Shown one piece after another: positions 1,858 through 27,069 of a stretch of 33,530 nt of DNA (positions within the stretch are counted from its first letter, which is position 1; every line of letters starts with the position of its first letter). This DNA is from Fidelibacterota bacterium (lineage in GTDB: Bacteria > Fidelibacterota > UBA2242). The translations under genes were made by a program, and so were the position numbers. The notes beneath the pieces were generated by a model. It had not been told where the DNA came from. It saw only the letters and a program-made list of their open reading frames with translations, and made no database searches. The DNA is taken from assembly GCA_003527965.1 (NCBI GenBank), contig DPVY01000263.1, forward strand, positions 1 to 33,530. Direction: 5' to 3'.

Positions 1858-3615
1858 TTGACAGCGGCTTTACGGGTTCAATCGTTGCGCTATTTATGGC
1901 TTCTTTTCTTAATAATGTTTTTATCAACCGCTGTTTTTCCACAGATTGAAACCGATTCGACGGAAATTCCACTAAAAGTCTGGCTATATCTGGATGAATC
2001 AAGACTATCTGCAGACAACACTCAACCAATAATACTTCCCGAGAAAACTCTGAACCGGCTCAATAAAAAGGGGCATTATTCAGATAATCTCCTTTCGAAT
2101 TCAGAACCGTCGGCATCGATTTATGACCAGATTTCGCCCCACACATACAAAATAAACTATTACTCCCGGTCCTTATGCGCCTATTCCGCCGTTGTTTATC
2201 CTTCTCAAATCCAAGCGCTGAAACAATTGCCGATTATCCGTCAAATTCAGGAAATCAGAACCTTTAAGAAAAAGCCGGTTATTAAAACAGCGGAATCTTT
2301 AAAAATATTGAACAAATCTACTGCGGATCAACCTTTCTATGGAAACACCTATGCGCAGCTCGCTCAGCTTAATATCCCCGCGGTTCACGATTCCGGATAT
2401 ACGGGTCGCGATGTCAGGATTGCGATTATCGACGCCGGATTCTATAAAGATCATACCGCTTTTCAACATATCATTGACAGCGGGCGTTTAATTGCCGAGC
2501 GGGATTTTATTTTCAACGATAATAATGTCCAGGATGAAATACGCGAAGACACAACCTCCGCCGGCGCCCAGGCAAATCATGGAACTTCCGTATGGAGCGT
2601 TATCGGCGGATATGAGCCCTATGTTTATATCGGAGCCGCTTATAATGCCGAATTTTTACTTGCTAAAACCGAAAGAATCGGTTCGGAGAGTATTATTGAA
2701 GAAGATCGCTTTGTTGCGGCGGTTGAATGGGCGGAAGCCGGGGGCGCGGATATTATTAGCTCGTCAGTCGCATACCGTGACTTTGACAACCAAGCCGAAG
2801 ATTATTTTTTCAGGGATCTTGATGGTAAAACAAGCAACTCCGCCAAAGCGATAAACTGGGCTTTTGAACGCGGCGTCCTGTCGGTAATAGCTGCCGGCAA
2901 TGACGCGCAGCGTTTTCCGCAGGATGGCGGCCTGCTGACGCCATCCGACGCGTACGGCGCACTGACCGTTGGAGCGGTAGATCGCAACGGACAGATCGCC
3001 GGATTCAGTTCCCACGGTCCAACCGCCGATGGACGCATAAAACCGGATTTGTGCGCTCTGGGCGTCTATACTTATATTGCTTTCTCGTCTTCCGCAAGTC
3101 TGTATGGAACTCGGAGCGGGACATCTTTTGCGACCCCGCTGATCGCCGGCGCAGCCGCCCTGGTAATGGAGAAATTTCCCGATTTGCCTCCGGCGCAAAT
3201 CATTGAGCGGCTTAAAAAATATGCCTCCCTGTCCGATTCACCGGATAATCGGTATGGCTGGGGAATTCCGAATACCTTCCGGTCCCTATTTGAAAAAGAT
3301 TCCTCTTTTACACCGAATTTTTATACTGAAGAGACTATCTCCGCATTCCCGAATCCTGCTCTTCAGGAAGTCACTTTTTTCTTCCAATGGACAAACATAA
3401 TTCCATCCGCAGCTCCGACGACTTTCTTTGTCTATAACTCTATCGGTCAAACCGTCTGGAAATATACTCTTATCCCTAAAATTGTGGGATTGAATGAACA
3501 AATTGTCTGGAGCCTGCAAAATCTGCAAGGAAAAGGGGTTTCGTCCGGAGTCTACTTTTTATCCGTCAAAGACGGCGACAAATTCCTTCGCGGGAAACTG
3601 CTTGTATTACGCTAA
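1858..3615 (+). CDS. Secreted subtilisin-like serine protease (peptidase S8) with a T9SS-type C-terminal sorting domain
   Basis: Catalytic triad motifs IAIIDAGF (Asp), NHGTSVWS (His) and SGTSFATPLIAG (Ser). N-terminal signal peptide from a TTG start. The C-terminal ~80 aa (AFPNPA...GVYFLSV...GKLLVLR) look like a Por/T9SS CTD. Confidence 0.88.
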   Translation: MTAALRVQSLRYLWLLFLIMFLSTAVFPQIETDSTEIPLKVWLYLDESRLSADNTQPIILPEKTLNRLNKKGHYSDNLLSNSEPSASIYDQISPHTYKINYYSRSLCAYSAVVYPSQIQALKQLPIIRQIQEIRTFKKKPVIKTAESLKILNKSTADQPFYGNTYAQLAQLNIPAVHDSGYTGRDVRIAIIDAGFYKDHTAFQHIIDSGRLIAERDFIFNDNNVQDEIREDTTSAGAQANHGTSVWSVIGGYEPYVYIGAAYNAEFLLAKTERIGSESIIEEDRFVAAVEWAEAGGADIISSSVAYRDFDNQAEDYFFRDLDGKTSNSAKAINWAFERGVLSVIAAGNDAQRFPQDGGLLTPSDAYGALTVGAVDRNGQIAGFSSHGPTADGRIKPDLCALGVYTYIAFSSSASLYGTRSGTSFATPLIAGAAALVMEKFPDLPPAQIIERLKKYASLSDSPDNRYGWGIPNTFRSLFEKDSSFTPNFYTEETISAFPNPALQEVTFFFQWTNIIPSAAPTTFFVYNSIGQTVWKYTLIPKIVGLNEQIVWSLQNLQGKGVSSGVYFLSVKDGDKFLRGKLLVLR

Positions 3616-3621
3616 TTTCTA

Positions 3622-3652
3622 TTGACAACCTTATGAGCCCTCTACAGTCTAA
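3622..3652 (+). promoter_or_regulatory. Candidate ECF-type (autoregulated) promoter upstream of the sigma factor gene
   Basis: AAC (3627-3629), a 17-nt spacer, then GTCTAA (3647-3652), which resembles the ECF -35 AAC / -10 (C)GTC pattern. It overlaps TTGACA (3622-3627) with a short 15-nt spacer to TACAGT. Confidence 0.3.
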
Positions 3653-3668
3653 ACAAAGAGATTGATTT

Positions 3669-4223
3669 ATGGAACAACAAGAAATAGAAATAATTGAAAA
3701 AATAAAAAATGGTGACGGGATGGCCTTCCAGAAGATAATGAGCAAGTATGGAGAGCGAGTCATGGGGTTGGCCTTTCACTTCACTAAAAACCATCAGGAT
3801 GCCGAGGATCTTTATCAGGAAACCTTCATAAAGGTTTATCGGAATATCGATTCTTTTCGGTTTGAAAGCGAATTCTTCACCTGGGTATACCGCATATTGA
3901 CCAACCATGCCTTCAATTATTTCCGCAAATCCAAAAGAATGTCGATCGTTGATCCCGGGGAAAATGATTACCTGTGGGAAACCCTGCCCGCCGACGAAAG
4001 CTGCGAAGCCGACCAGGCAACTCTGAACTCATCGCTCCGGGAGGAAATAGACCGGGCTCTTCTGCAATTATCCCCGCAACAGCGAGTCGTATTTATCCTG
4101 AAGCACTATGAAGGAAAAAAAATCAAAGACATCGCCTTAATTCTGGATTGCACAGAGGGAACCGTTAAACGCTATCTATTCCGGGCAACACGCAAACTAC
4201 AAACAATCCTTGTAAAGGCCTAA
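3669..4223 (+). CDS. ECF-subfamily RNA polymerase sigma-70 factor
   Basis: 184 aa. Region 2 reads DAEDLYQETFIKVYRNIDSFR. Region 4 HTH reads LSPQQRVVFILKHYEGKKIKDIALILDCTEGTVKRYLFRATRKL. Confidence 0.92.
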   Translation: MEQQEIEIIEKIKNGDGMAFQKIMSKYGERVMGLAFHFTKNHQDAEDLYQETFIKVYRNIDSFRFESEFFTWVYRILTNHAFNYFRKSKRMSIVDPGENDYLWETLPADESCEADQATLNSSLREEIDRALLQLSPQQRVVFILKHYEGKKIKDIALILDCTEGTVKRYLFRATRKLQTILVKA

Positions 4224-10411: not shown

Positions 10412-11191
10412 TTACTGTTTCTTTTCTTTTTCGTCAGTCTCTTTGTCTGTAAAGAATTTCATAAAAGGCTTTACCAGATCGATGGGTAGCGGAAAGATGA
10501 TTGTGGAATTATTCTCAGTAGCCACTTCGCGCAGGGTTTGCAGATAGCGCAGCTGCAGGGTAATAGGTTCCTTCGTCAGGACTTCAGCGGCTTTCAGCAG
10601 TTTGGCTGAGGCCTGGAATTCACCTTCGGCGTTGATGATCTTGGCACGGCGTTCCCGTTCCGCTTCAGCCTGTTTTGCCATGGCGCGCTGCATTTCAGTG
10701 GGCAGGTCGACGTGTTTAATCTCTACCTGAGAAACCTTGATGCCCCAGGGATCGGTATGTGTATCAAGAATAGCCTGTAGTTCCGTGTTGATTTTTTCAC
10801 GTCCGGAGAGCAGCTCGTCCAGTTCGGCTTGACCGAGAATACTCCGCAGGGTTGTTTGAGCCAGCTGGGAAGTAGCATCAAAATAATTTTCTACTTCAAC
10901 AATAGCTTTAGTGGGTTCCATTACCCGGAAAAAAACCACCGCATTGACCTGAACGGAGACATTGTCTTTTGTGATAATATCCTGAACGGGGACATCATAA
11001 ACCACCGTTCGCAGGCTGACTTTGACCATTTTATCAATAAAGGGGATTATTAAAAATAATCCGGGCCCCTTGGCGCCGATCATGCGCCCTAATCGAAAGA
11101 TAACGCCTCGTTCGTATTCCTTCAAAACACGGATAGCGCTGGACAGGACAAAAAACACTAAAATAATGATGGTGACAATAGAAAGTTGCAT
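10412..11191 (-). CDS. SPFH/band-7 (stomatin-like) membrane protein
   Basis: 259 aa with an N-terminal TM helix, then [12 protein letters not shown] and an SPFH core. A coiled-coil region reads [16 protein letters not shown]. Confidence 0.92.
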
Positions 11192-11206
11192 CTTATTCTC
11201 CTTTTT

Positions 11207-12553
11207 CTATTCAGGTTTATATTCTTCTACAGTTAATTGCATACGCTCAACGGATTTGACGATAATCTGAGCTCCTTTGGGGATCGGCCGGGCGGCCCGG
11301 GCTTTCCAGATTTCACCATGGACCTTAACAGTTCCTGATTCGGTAATGTCGGTGGTCGCGATCCCGATTTCACCAATAATACCCTCCATGCCGGTAGTTG
11401 GCTGGCGTTTATGGGCCTTTAAAACATAAGATAAGGCGACAATGAAGAAAAGGGCGGTAAAAATCACTACCGGAATAATGACCGCCAGGGAAACGGAAAA
11501 CAGGGCTTTGGGCGCTTCCGCGACGTCAAACAGCATCATAGATCCTAATATCATAGAGACTAATCCTCCTATTGTTAATAGCCCGTAGCTGGTTATACTT
11601 ATCTCTAAAATGAACAGGATAATGGCAACGATAATAAGGGCCACACCGGCATAATTGATCGGCAGTACCTGTAAGGCAAAAAATGCCAGGATCAGAAAGA
11701 CGATGCCGAGCACACCGGGGAAGATGGCGCCGGGGCTGCGAATTTCAAAAAAGAGTCCGTAAAAGCCCAGAATCAGTAATAAATAGGCGACGTTCGGGTC
11801 GCTGATAACATCCAGGATTTTGCGATGGAATCCCAGGGGACGGACGATGATTTTAGCATTATGGGTGGATAGAGTTTTTTCGCCTGACGGGACTTTAGTG
11901 ACTTTTCCGTCTAAATATTCAATAAATTCATCAAGATCTTTAGCGACGAGGTCAACGATATTCAGTTCCACGGCTTCGGTTTCAGTAATGGAAACGCTCT
12001 TCCGAACAGCCTCTTCGACCCACTCTTCGTTGCGCCCGCGTTCGTGGGCAAGACTGCGGATTTGTGCCACGGCATCGTTAGTCACTTTCTCCATCATAGT
12101 TTCGGTGCCGGCGGAATCGGGTTTGCTACCACCGAACGGGCTGCCGCCGCCCATGGTAACCGGGTGAGCCGCGCCGATATTGGTCCCGGGCGCCATAGCC
12201 GCGAAATGCGCCGCCACGGTAATGAAGACGCCGGCGGAAGCCGATTGCGCGCCCCGGGGACTAATGTAAACCGCTACCGGTACTTCAGAATTTAGAATGT
12301 CCTTGATGATATCCCGCATTGAGTTCATCAGACCGCCGGGCGTGTCCATTTTCAGGATCAGGCACTCGATCTTTTCCAAACCGGCTTTTTCAATGTTTTC
12401 GTGAATGTAGGACACCGCTACCGGATTGATTACACCATCGATCTCCAGAACCCAGATTTCACGGTTACCCGGATCCGAATCTGCGGCTGGAGCAGCAGTA
12501 AGCGGAATTAACAGAAGTAACAGGGAAATATAATATTTGAGTTGCTTTTTCAT
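11207..12553 (-). CDS. NfeD-family membrane-bound ClpP-class serine protease
   Basis: 448 aa with a signal peptide and an N-terminal ClpP-like domain (GAQSASAGVFI). It has a multi-TM middle and a C-terminal NfeD OB-fold (GTVKVHGEIWKARA). It lies 15 nt upstream of the SPFH gene. Confidence 0.9.
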   Translation of the reverse strand: MKKQLKYYISLLLLLIPLTAAPAADSDPGNREIWVLEIDGVINPVAVSYIHENIEKAGLEKIECLILKMDTPGGLMNSMRDIIKDILNSEVPVAVYISPRGAQSASAGVFITVAAHFAAMAPGTNIGAAHPVTMGGGSPFGGSKPDSAGTETMMEKVTNDAVAQIRSLAHERGRNEEWVEEAVRKSVSITETEAVELNIVDLVAKDLDEFIEYLDGKVTKVPSGEKTLSTHNAKIIVRPLGFHRKILDVISDPNVAYLLLILGFYGLFFEIRSPGAIFPGVLGIVFLILAFFALQVLPINYAGVALIIVAIILFILEISITSYGLLTIGGLVSMILGSMMLFDVAEAPKALFSVSLAVIIPVVIFTALFFIVALSYVLKAHKRQPTTGMEGIIGEIGIATTDITESGTVKVHGEIWKARAARPIPKGAQIIVKSVERMQLTVEEYKPE

Positions 12554-12763
12554 TCGTATGGAGTTCCTTTCAGAATATACAAGACAAAACGATGATTCTC
12601 AACCTGTTTCTTATTAATTCGGCTAATATTTAAATCCATCCACCTTTTAAAATCCGGAGGGTATCAGAAGCCGCAGCTATGATTGTAAACAGGATAAGAT
12701 TTAATAAAATCGAGCGAATTATACTCATCTGATACGAAATTATTATGCAAATTAGGAAAAGTA

Positions 12764-14068
12764 TCAGAAGAGAACAGCCATGGAAGCCGTCAATCGGTCT
12801 TCCGTATATTTTTGGCTGCTCCAGGTATCGAAATAAGGGTGTGATATTGTCTGATCGCCGACAGCTCGCTGGTAAGCGCAACCCAAAATAAAAGATTTTT
12901 TCAGGATTGTTTCGATTCCGGCGCCGATTAAATGATAATACTTGTCGTCGTCATTTTGAATATTTTCATAGGGTGACGGAATGCGGCGATAGGCCAATCG
13001 GGTTGAAACGGCATTGCCGATCGGCATGGCAAGGAATACACCGATGTCGGTTGTCTTGCGCAGGTTCCAATAAAGGTCGCGATTAATAGCGCTCTTGTCT
13101 TCCAGGCGATCGACTTCAATTTTCTGCCAGTTGTGGATTATAAGGTCCAGCCCGACAGTTAATTGTCCGAATTTAACGGCAAAAGAGGGGGCTATTTCCA
13201 TCGGATAACGGGATTCATATTCAAAATCATAATAATCGTTCTGGGTTGAATCGGGGTCAACGTCATAAGTAAATTTTTCCGAGAACTCACTGACTTCCTG
13301 AATAGTTAGATTTAAAGGTGTGGATATTTTCAACCCGAATTTAAAATTTGAGGAATGATAAGACAATCCGACGTCCATGTTGAAGCCGCTATAGTTGGGC
13401 TTGATGATTTCGCGGTTAATTATTTCATCATTTATCAGAACATCATTTTCATCAATCGCAGTTTCAACAGACTGGTAGCTGCGATCGCCGCCGTGAAAAT
13501 TCAAGGAAACTCCGGTATTGAAATTAGGTAAAAATTCAATAGCTCCGGCTATGCGAAGAGTATTCAAGGAACCGGTTTCTTCGATTTTTACTTCCTGATA
13601 GACGTCGCCGAAATCATAAGTGACTGTTCCCTTACTTTCCAGGTTTGAATAATAATAAGCCGAGGGAGTATAGCTGAGCGCAAACACCATGTTGCCACGA
13701 TAAACGGGAACAGGATATGCAAAACCAAAGTAGTCGGCGCGAACAGTATTGGAGGAGGTGGCAAATTCCTGTTGATTGCCGACCAAAGCCGAACGCTGAT
13801 CGACATTAAGATACTGCATTGAGACACAGGCTTTGGGGCGGCGGATATTAACCAAAAACGCCGGGTTTTCCAGCGTCGATGAGATATCCCTCGAAAGCAG
13901 GGAGTTATTATGCAGAGAAAAAGTCGAGGAGCTGATACCGTAAACATCACGGAACGGGCGCAGCGCTTCGCCGCTCATGGCTTCATTGAAAAATTGAGCC
14001 CGAATACTTATCGGAATAATAAAAAGAAAGACAAACAAGATTTTTAATTTTTGGGGGATACATGTCAT
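12764..14068 (-). CDS. Predicted outer-membrane beta-barrel protein (FadL/PorV-like N-terminal NPA motif); family uncertain
   Basis: 434 aa with a signal peptide (ILFVFLFIIPISIRAQ) and an ENPAFL motif. It has many amphipathic beta-strand segments and a C-terminal ...SMAVLF ending in Phe. Confidence 0.7.
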   Translation of the reverse strand: MTCIPQKLKILFVFLFIIPISIRAQFFNEAMSGEALRPFRDVYGISSSTFSLHNNSLLSRDISSTLENPAFLVNIRRPKACVSMQYLNVDQRSALVGNQQEFATSSNTVRADYFGFAYPVPVYRGNMVFALSYTPSAYYYSNLESKGTVTYDFGDVYQEVKIEETGSLNTLRIAGAIEFLPNFNTGVSLNFHGGDRSYQSVETAIDENDVLINDEIINREIIKPNYSGFNMDVGLSYHSSNFKFGLKISTPLNLTIQEVSEFSEKFTYDVDPDSTQNDYYDFEYESRYPMEIAPSFAVKFGQLTVGLDLIIHNWQKIEVDRLEDKSAINRDLYWNLRKTTDIGVFLAMPIGNAVSTRLAYRRIPSPYENIQNDDDKYYHLIGAGIETILKKSFILGCAYQRAVGDQTISHPYFDTWSSQKYTEDRLTASMAVLF

Positions 14069-14071
14069 ATA

Positions 14072-15337
14072 TTAATTCCTATTTCGGCTGTTTTTGGATG
14101 AATTGCCGGAAGATGATTTAGAAGAGGACTTGGAAGACGATGATTGACTACCTGGGGAACGTGAACCGGCTGAAGAACTTGAGCCGGAAGATGATGATCG
14201 GCTACTGGGTTTTGGTGAAACCGTGGAACTTCTCGGAGTCGACGAGCGAGTAGATCTTGAATTTGAAGGCGCTTTGTAGCTGGAACTCTTTGAGGAGCTA
14301 TTTGAAGACGATCTGGCTGATGATTGACGTTTTGGCGCCGAATATGTTTCTTTGTTTTTATTACTATTTTGTTTCTCCGGTTTACTTCTTTGCCGAACAG
14401 AGGGCTTTTTCTCCGGTGGGGTTAAAACGGGAGTGGGAGAGGGCTTGGTCGGAGCAGAGCGCCGGATTATTTTTGTCTCAGCTTTCGGCTGCGGGGGCTG
14501 TATCGTATTCTGAAAACCGGAGATAGATTTATCCCGAGGTTTGGGGGTGAGCCGTTGTTTCGATTGTTTTTCTTTTAAAACTTCCTGGGGGTTTTCAGAC
14601 GTCTGCGGTTTTGAGACAATCGGCGCTGAACTGTTGTTTCTCGAGCCGGACGATCCTATACTTCCCATATTTCCCGACCCGGCGCTCATCGGCAGGTCCA
14701 GGCTGGATTGGAAATCAGGGTTGGATTGTCTCGGTGTCAATGTTGCACGTTTTTGCCCTGTTGGAGAATCTTTAGGCTGCCAATCCGCTTTTTTCTGTTG
14801 TCGCCCCTCGGCAACCGGTTCACGGCTGCCATATCCCCCGCGATAATAACCGCCGTAGTAATAGGAGCCCCGGCCATAGTAATATCTCGAATATGGGTAA
14901 TTGTAACTACGGTAACGATAGGGATTATAATAACCATAACTGTAATAACCCCAGTCATAAAAGGGATCATAGAAAAAGGGATCGTAATAGCCCAAATAAA
15001 AGGAATGGTAAGAACTCCAGGGTGAATACCAGTAAGAATTGTAGTCATAGAATCTGCTGTGGGGATTATATCCATACCATAAATTACTGTTTAAAAAGTC
15101 TTGAGTGGCGTTCCGGTAGCCTTGATTATAATCAGAAATATCGGGGGCCTCAAACACATAACTTTCGTAGGAACCGACTTCATCGTCGTATTGACTGCTT
15201 TCGGCATCGTATTGTTGGTCATAATTCCCCCGGGAAACCTCTTCCCTGGAGACGGGTTCAGATAGTTTTGTATAGCAACCGGATAAAAGGAACAGGGCGA
15301 TTATCGCGGGTGAGAGTAATTTTAATGGTTTTTTCAT
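14072..15337 (-). CDS. Lipoprotein with a Tyr/Gly-rich core and a long basic Ser/Pro/Lys-rich disordered tail
   Basis: 421 aa with a lipobox LLSGC. By hand count there are 38 Tyr in about 135 residues (for example YYDPFFYDPFYDWGYYSYGYYNPYRYRSYNYPYSRYYYGRGSYYYGGYYRGGYG). The last ~90 aa are dominated by Ser. Its stop is 3 nt from the barrel gene start. Confidence 0.75.
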   Translation of the reverse strand: MKKPLKLLSPAIIALFLLSGCYTKLSEPVSREEVSRGNYDQQYDAESSQYDDEVGSYESYVFEAPDISDYNQGYRNATQDFLNSNLWYGYNPHSRFYDYNSYWYSPWSSYHSFYLGYYDPFFYDPFYDWGYYSYGYYNPYRYRSYNYPYSRYYYGRGSYYYGGYYRGGYGSREPVAEGRQQKKADWQPKDSPTGQKRATLTPRQSNPDFQSSLDLPMSAGSGNMGSIGSSGSRNNSSAPIVSKPQTSENPQEVLKEKQSKQRLTPKPRDKSISGFQNTIQPPQPKAETKIIRRSAPTKPSPTPVLTPPEKKPSVRQRSKPEKQNSNKNKETYSAPKRQSSARSSSNSSSKSSSYKAPSNSRSTRSSTPRSSTVSPKPSSRSSSSGSSSSAGSRSPGSQSSSSKSSSKSSSGNSSKNSRNRN

Positions 15338-22938: not shown

Positions 22939-23929
22939 GATGTACTATGACAAGGATGGCGATCGGGAAATACTTAAGGGCAAAACAATTGCAATTATTG
23001 GCTATGGCAGCCAGGGACATGCTCAGGCTCAGAACCTGCGGGACAGCGGCTACAATGTTATCGTTGCCGACAGAAAAGGCAGCGAAAATTATCTGCTGGC
23101 TAAAAGTCACGGATTTAAGCCCATGACTGCTGCGGAAGCCAGCGCCAAAGCCGATATCATTCAGGTCCTGGTTCCCGACGAATTGCAAAAAAAGGTCTAC
23201 ACGGGAGAGATTGAAAAATATCTTACCGCCGGAAAAGCTCTGGTGTTTTCCCACGGTTTCAATATTCACTTTGGGCAGATCGTTCCTCCGCCGGATGTGG
23301 ATGTCTACATGGTGGCGCCCAAAGGTCCGGGGCATCTGGTTCGTCGTCAATATGAAATCGGCGCCGGTGTTCCATCGTTGATTGCCGTTTACCAGGACGC
23401 TACGGGCAAGGCTAAAGAGATGGCCCTGGCGCATGCCTGCGGAATCGGCGCCGGTCGGGCCGGGATAATTGAAACTTCATTCAGGGAAGAGACTGAAACC
23501 GACCTCTTCGGCGAACAGGCAGTCCTTTGCGGCGGCGTAACCGAATTGATCAAAGGTGGTTTTGAAACACTTGTTGATGCCGGATACCAGCCGGAAATTG
23601 CCTATTTTGAGTGCCTGCATGAGTTGAAACTGATTACAGATTTGATTCAGGAGGGGGGTATTGGCTGGATGAATTATTCGATTTCCGATACGGCAGAATA
23701 CGGCGAATACACACGTGGACCCAGACTGGTTAATGCAGATGTTAAAAAAGAGATGAAGGCAATCCTGTGCGAAATCCAGAGTGGCAGTTTTGCCAAAGAA
23801 TGGATTCTTGAGAATCAAGCCGGGCGTCCGACCCTAAACGCCAGCCGCCGGGAAAACAGCGAACTGCTGATTGAAAAAGTCGGGAAGCAGTTACGCGGCA
23901 TGATGTCATGGCTGAAAAAAGAAAAATAA
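22928..23929 (+). CDS. ilvC: Ketol-acid reductoisomerase (class I)
   Basis: The preferred start is ATG 22928 ([12 protein letters not shown]), preceded by AAAGGAGAG. Rossmann motif is [13 protein letters not shown]. It overlaps the ilvN end by 11 nt. Confidence 0.96.
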
Positions 23930-23931
23930 GT

Positions 23932-25509
<1,578 letters not shown>

Positions 25510-25524
25510 AAACCCGGAGATATT

Positions 25525-27069
25525 ATGGATAAACGCAAAATAATTATTTTTGACACAACCCTGCGGGACGGGGAACAGAGTCCCGGCGCTTCGCTGACGG
25601 TCAATGAAAAGCTGGTAATAGCCCACCAATTGGCGCGGTTAGGCGTTGACGTGATTGAAGCCGGATTTCCGATTGCCTCCGAGGGGGATTTCGAAGCTGT
25701 AAAGGTGATTGCCCGGAATGTCAAGGGACCGACGATTGCCGGTTTAGCTCGGGCAAACGACGCCGATATCGACCGTTGCTGGGAAGCAGTGAAATACGCT
25801 GAAAAGCCCCGCATTCATACCTTTATCGCAACTTCGAAAGTCCATCGCGATGAAAAATTGCGGAAGACAAAGGAAGAAGTCATCGATCTTGCGGTAAAGG
25901 CCGTCAAACGGGCGAAAAGTTACTGCGACGATGTGGAGTTTTCGCCGGAAGACGCTGCCCGCACGAGCCCGGATTACATGTGCGACGTCGTGCGTGCCGT
26001 CATCGCCGCCGGGGCAACTACGGTGAATATTCCCGATACCGTAGGCTATTCCGAGCCGCAGGAGTTCGGCGACCGGATTCGCTATCTTTTCGAGCAAGTG
26101 CCCGAAGCAAAAAATATAGTGGTCAGTGTCCATTGTCATAACGATCTCGGCAATGCCGTGGCAAATTCACTGGCGGCGGTGGAAGCCGGCGCCGGTCAGG
26201 TAGAAGGCTGTATAAACGGTATCGGCGAACGGGCCGGGAACGCCTCCCTGGAAGAGGTCGTCATGAACCTCACGACCAGGAAGGACTTTTATAATGTAGC
26301 GCTGAATATTAATACCCGCGAGATATATAAAACCAGCCGGTTGGTATCCAATTTAACCGGCATCGAAGTGCAGCGCAATAAGGCTATTGTCGGTGTGAAT
26401 GCCTTTGCCCACGAAGCCGGCATCCATCAGCATGGTGTTTTGAAGAGCAAAGCAACCTACGAAATCATGACGCCCGAAGAGGTCGGCTGGATGGGCGAAA
26501 ATCTGGTGATCGGCAAACATTCCGGCAAACATGCCGTGACCGCCCTTCTGCAAGACGAAGGATTTCAACTGGATAAGGACCAGATTCAACAAATCACCGA
26601 AAAGGTCAAAGATCTGGCCGATAAGCAGAAATCTGTTGAGCGGGAAGATGTTATTGCCATTGCCCGTGATATTACTCATCAGCTGTCCGAAGAAGAGCAA
26701 TTTGTCAAATTAGAAGAATTTGCCGTGATTACCGGTTCCGATATGACGCCCACGGCATCGGTGAAATTGCGGGTCAACGGGGAGCTGAAAATCGCAGCCG
26801 GGGTTGGCGATGGACCGGTTGACGCGATTAGTAATGCAATCTGGCAAATGGTAGATCCTTCTTTAAAACTGATGGATTACCATCTGAAGGCGATTACCGG
26901 CGGGACCGACGCCCTGGCAGACGTGTCGATCAAACTTTCCGATGAAAAGCAGAATATATTTGTGGCCCGCTCGGTGGACGAGGATGTGATCCGCGCCAGC
27001 GCCAAAGCCATTGTGAAAGGCATCAATAAAGCCTTAAGTTTCAGGGAAAAAATTCATCCGCAGCGTTAG
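25525..27069 (+). CDS. leuA: 2-isopropylmalate synthase
   Basis: 514 aa with [14 protein letters not shown] and HCHNDLGNAVANSLAAVEAGA. It has a C-terminal LeuA allosteric domain. Confidence 0.93.
   Translation: MDKRKIIIFDTTLRDGEQSPGASLTVNEKLVIAHQLARLGVDVIEAGFPIASEGDFEAVKVIARNVKGPTIAGLARANDADIDRCWEAVKYAEKPRIHTFIATSKVHRDEKLRKTKEEVIDLAVKAVKRAKSYCDDVEFSPEDAARTSPDYMCDVVRAVIAAGATTVNIPDTVGYSEPQEFGDRIRYLFEQVPEAKNIVVSVHCHNDLGNAVANSLAAVEAGAGQVEGCINGIGERAGNASLEEVVMNLTTRKDFYNVALNINTREIYKTSRLVSNLTGIEVQRNKAIVGVNAFAHEAGIHQHGVLKSKATYEIMTPEEVGWMGENLVIGKHSGKHAVTALLQDEGFQLDKDQIQQITEKVKDLADKQKSVEREDVIAIARDITHQLSEEEQFVKLEEFAVITGSDMTPTASVKLRVNGELKIAAGVGDGPVDAISNAIWQMVDPSLKLMDYHLKAITGGTDALADVSIKLSDEKQNIFVARSVDEDVIRASAKAIVKGINKALSFREKIHPQR

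Follow-up and report, generated by a model that had tools for sequence, protein, structure and literature searches.

What does a tyrosine-rich lipoprotein that is predicted to have no fold do directly in front of an outer-membrane barrel? The question is raised by two adjacent genes in a 33,530-nucleotide (nt) stretch of a Fidelibacterota genome (GenBank assembly GCA_003527965.1, contig DPVY01000263.1, positions 1 to 33,530 of the forward strand), here called the window. The genome is a 2.56-Mb metagenome-assembled genome (MAG), 85% complete, and its nearest relatives by protein carry the labels Candidatus Marinimicrobia or Neomarinimicrobiota. Both genes lie on the minus strand, the lipoprotein gene at 14072..15337 (421 amino acids, aa) and the barrel gene at 12764..14068 (434 aa), stop codons counted in.

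Our answer, held at a probability of about 40%, is by analogy: the pair would form an outer-membrane complex like that of BamG and BamH, in which the disordered and sticky partner would stay periplasmic as an envelope organiser or tether. A literature search found no paper describing the lipoprotein-barrel pair.

A dedicated lipoprotein-barrel pair

The sequence-only reading of this DNA had proposed a two-gene operon with 3-nt spacing, and both minus-strand open reading frames (ORFs) are confirmed. The junction reads ...AAT TAA TAT ATG, with the spacer at 14069..14071 on the minus strand and the two genes in one reading frame. The lipoprotein gene is called from its ORF, from orthologues 5' of the barrel and from the ratio of nonsynonymous to synonymous substitution rates (dN/dS), and the barrel gene from its ORF, an AlphaFold model and Foldseek.

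A dedicated pairing had also been proposed, and synteny bears it out. Among the 53 Marinimicrobia loci with upstream DNA, where the partner ORF was judged by inspection, the partner is directly upstream of the barrel in 18 of 18 family-level loci, 15 of 15 order- or phylum-level loci and 20 of 20 further loci from about ten other families. In these loci the upstream same-strand ORF encodes a lipoprotein in which an aromatic block precedes a basic tail, itself nearly always K/R-rich at the end. The gene gap is −4 to 55 nt in the Marinimicrobia pairs and up to 117 nt in other phyla. The two genes thus form a dedicated pair. None of the loci examined showed a link to bamA.

The barrel is present in 34 of the 37 sampled genomes of the window's order and single-copy in 36 of 41 relatives. 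Phylum-wide, 78 of 151 genomes have it at E ≤ 1e-10; it is rarer in some families and not found in some genomes of about 1 Mb. A hidden Markov model (HMM) of the partner, run on 151 genomes of the phylum, finds it in 23 of the 26 of the window's own family and in one genome outside. The partner diverges too fast for profile searches, which explains its orphan-like look and makes the ORF inspection necessary.

The pair was also sought beyond the phylum by scanning one genome per species for the partner motifs YDP[FWY][FS]YDPF and NLWYGY, the loci being chosen by the partner alone. They came from unclassified bacteria, a Cytophagia-labelled MAG, Balneolaceae, Mariniphaga, a Flavobacteriales MAG, Prevotella and three cultured Pontibacter species. 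In twelve partner-selected loci the next gene encodes a barrel matching the Marinimicrobia barrel HMM. Most of these barrels also match Pfam Toluene_X, three (L062, L073 and L077) passing it at 64-79 bits, and none of the cross-phylum module barrels comes up to the BamG or PorV cut-offs.

The cross-phylum partners often start with GCYTQLAKP (L062, L067, L073) and continue with an acidic linker and YDPFFYDPF repeats. Their tails are long, made of Arg/Ser/Gly/Lys, and end in RRR, RRKR or GGRR. The public names of the pair are hypothetical protein, YXWGXW repeat-containing protein and OmpP1/FadL family transporter. We rejected the YXWGXW identity: no Pfam family matches the window partner (E ≤ 1) or the Pontibacter and Mariniphaga partners (E ≤ 0.01), and the name occurs in UniRef only.

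On the barrel HMM, the cross-phylum module barrels score 24-232 bits versus 4-19 bits for four FadL-type paralogues from the same genome. A maximum-likelihood (ML) tree of the module barrels and these paralogues has an unresolved backbone and long branches, so orthology was judged by HMM ranking and synteny. Judged in this way, the module appears older than the Marinimicrobia phylum.

Proteins that look similar occur also alone. In six Gemmatimonadales MAG loci (L061, L064, L065, L068, L081 and L082), exported proteins of 490-610 aa combine a YDPFFYDPF-type repeat with a Ser/Arg/Gly tail whose last residues are RRR or RRKP. They have no adjacent barrel and their N-terminal domain differs, and they may be barrel-independent relatives of the partner family. 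In the Bacteroidota loci L066, L069, L074 and L076, the upstream neighbour of the module, placed back-to-back with it, resembles prolyl-tRNA synthetase when its N-terminal sequence is judged by eye; immediately past this neighbour, Pontibacter sp. FD36 (L076) encodes a short NfeD-like protein.

The lipoprotein of the window begins with MKKPLKLLSPAIIALFLLSG followed by C, a classical lipobox with Cys21 as the lipid cysteine. The LLSGC lipobox noticed in the sequence-only reading is present in the sequence and kept in orthologues, and the signal peptide with the lipobox spans residues 1-21 (15275..15337, minus strand, as are all the segments below). The segment that follows, CYTKLSEP (residues 21-28, 15254..15277), is the proposed docking segment by analogy with BamH. 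In a comparison of 64 distinct partners, Tyr is at +2 in 58, Thr at +3 in 59 and Pro at +8 in 50, and this N-terminus after the Cys is the most conserved part of the partner.

An acidic linker comes next by composition (residues 29-70, 15128..15253), residues 22-70 having a net charge of −10; 18 orthologous partners likewise have an acidic head of −5 to −11. The Tyr-rich aromatic block (residues 71-175, 14813..15127) is delimited by composition, invariant alignment columns and dN/dS. Its 105 residues include 32 Tyr, 12 Gly, 12 Ser and 6 Phe, and its conserved motifs NLWYGYNP and YLGYYDPFFYDPFYDWGYY have columns invariant in two alignments. The earlier hand count of about 38 Tyr in about 135 residues is exact for the densest 135-residue window, which begins at residue 35 and holds 38 of the 41 Tyr of the whole protein, so that Tyr makes up 28% of the core.

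The rest is a basic disordered tail (residues 176-421, 14075..14812), delimited by composition, alignment and orthologue charges. With its net charge of +32 it agrees with the tail of roughly 250 residues described before, including the Ser/Lys/Arg end. Residues 176-300 are rich in S/P/Q/K with a net charge of +11, and residues 301-421 have 49 Ser, 13 Lys and 11 Arg, net +21, and turn into Ser/Lys/Arg low complexity at the end. Short family-level motifs lie within the tail: EGRQQKKA, DFQ..L.LPM.AG and GFQN. In the 18 orthologous partners the final 150 residues have a net charge of +11 to +31, and nearly all the C-termini are K/R-rich, so the Tyr-rich core and the basic tail are conserved features of the orthologues.

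The low complexity resides at the protein level and not in DNA slippage, because Tandem Repeats Finder finds a single weak 12-nt repeat in the gene and the 49 Ser of the tail are encoded with all six Ser codons. Against the sister genome, dN/dS of the lipoprotein is 0.28 overall, 0.14 in the Tyr block, 0.22 in the middle and 0.50 in the tail, and that of the barrel is 0.14. The lipoprotein gene is under purifying selection. The protein has no Pfam or NCBIfam family at E ≤ 1, and its AlphaFold model has a predicted local distance difference test score (pLDDT) of 22-37 along the whole length. It is thus predicted to be disordered throughout, and it has no described equivalent.

The barrel and its superfamily

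The sequence-only reading recognised neither protein as a characterised family, and for the barrel this no longer holds. Its AlphaFold model, made from 36 homologues, has a pLDDT of 80.8 and a predicted template modelling score of 0.79. The top Foldseek matches in the PDB are three solved BamG subunits, namely 9hiv_F of B. thetaiotaomicron (E 9e-16, template modelling score, TM, 0.60), 9n2d_B of F. johnsoniae and 9hjm_F of P. gingivalis. FadL, TodX, TbuX and CymD follow at TM 0.5-0.6, the FadL, TodX and TbuX structures (1t16, 3dwn, 3bs0, 3bry) at E 1e-13 to 3e-9 and TM 0.52-0.59, and PorV (8gl6_F) comes only at rank 36 with TM 0.38. By the model, the protein belongs at the fold level to the FadL/OmpP1/TodX superfamily as a predicted 14-strand barrel closest to BamG.

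The signal peptide comprises residues 1-24 (13997..14068, minus strand), with probable cleavage between SIRA and QFF as judged from the sequence and a helix at 6-20 in the model. The N-terminal extension and hatch (residues 25-78, 13835..13996) are placed by motif conservation and include EALRPF and NPA; the RPF motif is found in 39 of 64 distinct barrels. N68, P69 and A70 of the NPA motif (13859-13867) are invariant in the 36-sequence alignment. The earlier description of a 434-aa outer-membrane barrel with ENPAFL and a terminal Phe stands, with ENPAFL at residues 67-72, ...MAVLF at the C-terminus and a barrel by AlphaFold and Foldseek.

The barrel body (residues 79-434, 12767..13834) has 14 strands in the DSSP assignment of two independent AlphaFold models, when 127-151 and 291-312 are treated as single kinked strands. 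The length is 24-27 residues for strands 3-7 and 11-23 for the rest, and strand 3 is kinked in both models. The NPA motif is at mature position 44-46 versus 33-35 in E. coli FadL, whose numbering was taken from the PDB mutant names N33A and P34A, so the window barrel has about 11 extra N-terminal residues. The model places this extension at pLDDT <66.

Pfam PF03349 (Toluene_X; gathering threshold 29.7 bits) gives no match at E ≤ 1 and the NCBIfam PorV and PorQ models (NF033709/NF033710) give none either. NCBIfam BamG (NF053685) reaches 54.9 bits against a cut-off of 250 and covers profile positions 36-285 only. Pfam PorP_SprF (PF11751) gives 22.4 bits against a cut-off of 22.3 and covers positions 97-201 of 273 only. 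NCBI annotations of orthologues include PorP/SprF (one orthologue) and TraF, labels that we rejected as borderline, partial matches. With such matches set aside, the barrel is by these thresholds a member of neither BamG, PorV, PorP nor Pfam FadL.

Compared with the FadL, TodX and TbuX channels, the window barrel has the 14 strands, the NPA hatch, the kinked strand 3 and the C-terminal Phe in common. It differs in the extra N-terminal residues, in having a partner gene and in lacking a Pfam match. Its neighbours also differ, being lptF/G, NfeD, SPFH and ligA and not genes of fatty-acid or aromatic catabolism. PorP/SprF and PorV/PorQ of type IX secretion belong to the same broad superfamily, and PorP-like genes adjoin the gene of the protein they anchor (PMC9143113). 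Here the partner differs, having no C-terminal domain of the type IX secretion system (T9SS) but Ser/Lys/Arg low complexity at its C-terminus.

The same genome holds a better BamG candidate. Over its full length, a gene on contig C183 scores 148 bits with NCBIfam BamG, still under the cut-off. A DNRLRE-domain lipoprotein (C-EEKIPT) is encoded before it and a tetratricopeptide-repeat (TPR) lipoprotein after it. The unit (locus L021, all on the minus strand) runs at 2693-3946, 1492-2688 and 184-1470 for the DNRLRE lipoprotein, the BamG-like barrel and the TPR lipoprotein, respectively. This trio is likely the BamH-BamG unit of the genome, which would put a Bacteroidota-type β-barrel assembly machinery (BAM) in the Marinimicrobia.

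Because this better candidate stands beside a BamH-like lipoprotein, the window barrel is not BamG itself. The genome encodes further barrels, one more FadL-like, one PorV-like and one PorQ-like, and the window barrel is an additional superfamily member. The PorV-like barrel is also on C183 (L027: 84-1346) and the PorQ-like one on contig C49 (L024: 1051-2064). The two neighbours of the PorQ-like gene, at 149-1042 and 2100-3278, have C-termini resembling T9SS sorting domains, and these flanks suggest a T9SS in the genome.

Docking, transport or display

Our preferred reading takes BamG and BamH as the template. BamG holds BamH through two features, the pillar that its long strands 3-7 build and its conserved N-terminus (PMC12611786, PMC12578637), longer than that of FadL by about 10-12 residues (PMC12578637). 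The window barrel resembles BamG in the strands 3-7 that form the extracellular pillar and in the extended and conserved N-terminus. The window pair resembles BamG-BamH (9hiv, 9n2d, 9hjm) in combining a FadL-fold 14-strand barrel with a lipoprotein whose lipidated N-terminus is conserved, and BamG2-BamH2 (Bt1785-Bt1786) in its operon arrangement. The docking is thus supported by the dedicated pairing in the Marinimicrobia and other phyla, the BamG-closest fold, the 24-27-residue strands 3-7, the N-terminal extension of about 11 residues and the high conservation of the partner's own N-terminus. The partners differ: BamH is a folded two-domain, carbohydrate-binding-like scaffold with an acidic surface-export signal, whereas the window partner is disordered and has one acidic residue at that position.

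By their sequences both proteins are exported, in this docking model by Sec, and the barrel would insert into the outer membrane. The partner, by its sequence a lipoprotein, would receive its lipid at Cys21 and then, as in the textbook pathway, be sorted to the same membrane, and the tight gene coupling would give matched amounts of the two. The N-terminus of the form Cys-Tyr-Thr-x-hydrophobic-x-x-Pro would dock on the barrel in the manner of BamH on BamG. The remaining chain of about 380 disordered residues would then hang into the periplasm.

Two points lead us to place the partner in the periplasm: the acidic surface-export signal is missing, and the partner's Prevotella homologue has an ordinary signal peptide, of the signal-peptidase-I type and not a lipobox. 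In Bacteroidota surface lipoproteins, at least two acidic residues among the six after the Cys make the export signal (PMC12578637). There are 0-1 such residues in 24 of 24 partners, the YTKLSE of the window having one, and 2 in the BamH-like lipoprotein of the window's genome (CEEKIPT).

As the strongest constraint falls on the aromatic block, the partner would function mainly through this element. The tail, which varies in sequence but holds to its composition, would act by its charge. Tyrosine combined with Arg/Lys, as in this block and tail, is how the stickers of self-associating disordered proteins are made up, phase-separating ones such as FUS among them. This make-up would suit self-association and the binding of peptidoglycan, lipid head groups or lipopolysaccharide. 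The role would be envelope cohesion or organisation and not catalysis or protein export.

Several points weigh against this docking model. An artificial fusion of the two proteins, co-folded as an AlphaFold monomer model, left the partner at pLDDT 22-37, in support of disorder, and gave no docked pose, although the test is a weak one with 7 paired rows and a 250-residue linker. The fusion reads the TAA as G, and its alignment took in 7 orthologues fused likewise, 17 N-terminal pieces of partners and 31 barrels. The surface-export rule comes from another phylum, the Bacteroidota, and its validity in the Marinimicrobia is assumed. Moreover, the barrel retains the hatch, the NPA motif and the strand-3 kink of true FadL channels, with which transport is possible, and the ML tree does not separate the module barrels from the paralogues.

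Transport is the core of the first alternative, which we consider rather unlikely: the barrel would be a working FadL-type hydrophobic channel and the aromatic lipoprotein an accessory that captures the substrate and hands it on at the periplasmic exit or that gates the channel. The strong fold matches with FadL, TodX and TbuX, the invariant NPA hatch, the strand-3 kink in both models and the 64-79 bits at which cross-phylum orthologues reach the Toluene_X threshold all fit a channel. A B. fragilis toxin receptor, said to be of the FadL family, is likewise a putative transporter of hydrophobic molecules (PMC12853789).

However, the window barrel itself has no Toluene_X match at E ≤ 1. The NPA motif is no sign of transport, because all FadL-superfamily barrels of the genome carry it, including the BamG-like and PorV-like ones. 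The extended N-terminus of BamG fills its lateral opening (PMC12578637), and the window barrel has a similar extension. No characterised FadL channel, moreover, is known to have an obligatory disordered partner.

The second alternative is that of the sequence-only reading, in which the lipoprotein is a surface-displayed adhesive, cross-linkable or matrix polymer that the barrel exports or anchors. We find it improbable as a whole, its anchoring part being the most plausible. The 28% Tyr core and the basic tail do resemble adhesive or phase-separating proteins, and the Bacteroidota BamA has an external disordered loop rich in Tyr/Gly/Asn (PMC12578637).

A further parallel is the BSAP-1 receptor OmpS/B1R-S of B. 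fragilis (BF9343_1563, 556 aa), a FadL-family barrel with a tall extracellular domain (PMC4999547, PMC12853789). Its gene is preceded by an exported-protein gene and is dispensable in rich medium but required for gut colonisation, and its acidic extracellular groove binds the basic disordered C-terminal peptide of the toxin (PMC4999547, PMC12853789). Its length of 556 aa compares with 517-574 aa for the Bacteroidales module barrels; the likeness follows the papers' description and orthology is only a lead. PDB sequence searches for this link gave no relative, and the matches listed in a homologue search with the Prevotella barrel are Prevotella clusters. In any case the receptor would be a distant relative, the Prevotella barrel scoring only 24 bits on the Marinimicrobia HMM.

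The inferred extracellular parts of the window barrel have a net charge of −19 (mean −20.6 in 34 orthologues), so this acidic crown could hold the basic tail in the way that the receptor's groove holds the toxin peptide. But the net charge of the barrel is ordinary for the outer-membrane proteins of this genome, others being just as acidic, and we rejected the electrostatic match of crown and tail as a specific sign.

Export through the barrel is unlikely. In barrels of the FadL type an N-terminal hatch plugs the lumen, and the window barrel keeps both this hatch and its NPA motif. Such a plugged 14-strand barrel is not a protein conduit, and it is unlikely that a chain of about 400 residues would pass through it. 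Surface exposure by other means also finds little favour: the partners have no acidic export signal after the Cys and, with no Pfam or NCBIfam family match, no T9SS C-terminal domain, and the Prevotella homologue is not lipidated and has no known export tag.

A third alternative, quite improbable in our judgement, makes the pair an alternative BAM accessory unit that binds BamA, with the Tyr-rich chain as a holdase for nascent barrels. BamG is indeed both the best fold match and the best NCBIfam match, and BamG2-BamH2 operons exist in Bacteroides (PMC12578637). Still, the 54.9 bits are far under the BamG cut-off, and the genome has the better BamG-like gene with the DNRLRE and TPR lipoproteins alongside. 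The partner has no BamH-like fold and no locus links the pair to bamA.

Finally, that the two proteins are merely co-transcribed envelope genes without interaction accords with the lack of a docked pose in the co-fold, but is very improbable given that the adjacency is kept in 53 of 53 Marinimicrobia loci and across phyla while all other neighbours change.

The surroundings and the meaning of the pair

The pair sits in an ordinary chromosome. Upstream are a divergent lptF/G permease, a pyrimidine-nucleoside phosphorylase and an ilv/leu operon. Downstream are genes for an NfeD1b-type protein (448 aa) and an SPFH/stomatin protein (259 aa) at 10412-12553 on the minus strand, and then ligA. A promoter and terminator scan found no terminator between the barrel and NfeD genes, with consensus models that do not cover the Marinimicrobia phylum.

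The NfeD-SPFH genes lie downstream of the pair in 18 of 18 loci of the window's family, and this arrangement is limited to its own family and order. Among the loci with enough downstream DNA, they are found in 0 of 14 from other families of the phylum and in 0 of 11 from other phyla. NfeD-SPFH is thereby ruled out as a component of the module, and the conserved unit is therefore the two genes.

In many relatives of the family and some of the order, an extra exported protein of 130-235 aa with a conserved P-x-I-[YF]-H is encoded between the barrel and NfeD (for example L004:787-1476 and L033:2585-3025). It has no Pfam or NCBIfam match. Its gene is absent in the window's genome and the sister, and a 210-nt gap at 12554-12763 of the window stands in its place. 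On the other side of the pair, two tandem LeuA/homocitrate-synthase-like genes (533 and 514 aa) lie at 23908-27069 within the ilv/leu operon, whose G+C content is 0.50-0.54 versus 0.38-0.47 elsewhere in the window.

The outer-membrane biology of the Fibrobacterota-Chlorobiota-Bacteroidota (FCB) group has just been shown to be unlike the E. coli model, in that a FadL-fold barrel in the BAM holds lipoproteins. A lipoprotein docked on a FadL-fold barrel is hence already known as a design, and by this analogy the version with a disordered partner would be new. The window pair would be a second use of the design, with a partner that has no predicted fold and yet is strongly conserved, reaching beyond the Bacteroidota into the Marinimicrobia.

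One may speculate further, as a long shot, that the pair is the Marinimicrobia form of an FCB-group envelope system. The FadL-fold barrel would nucleate a self-associating layer of disordered lipoprotein under or on the outer membrane, for example as a peptidoglycan tether, or the basic tail would be the natural ligand of the acidic groove that is mimicked by the Bacteroides toxins of the membrane attack complex/perforin (MACPF) type.

The FCB-group phyla are not known to have Lpp-type tethers (Braun's lipoprotein). As an envelope tether or organiser, the pair would fill this gap, and the partner would be a rare case among bacteria of a functional protein that is membrane-anchored and disordered throughout. 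Even as no more than a FadL channel plus accessory, the pair would be nearly universal, and without annotation, in a phylum abundant in the ocean.

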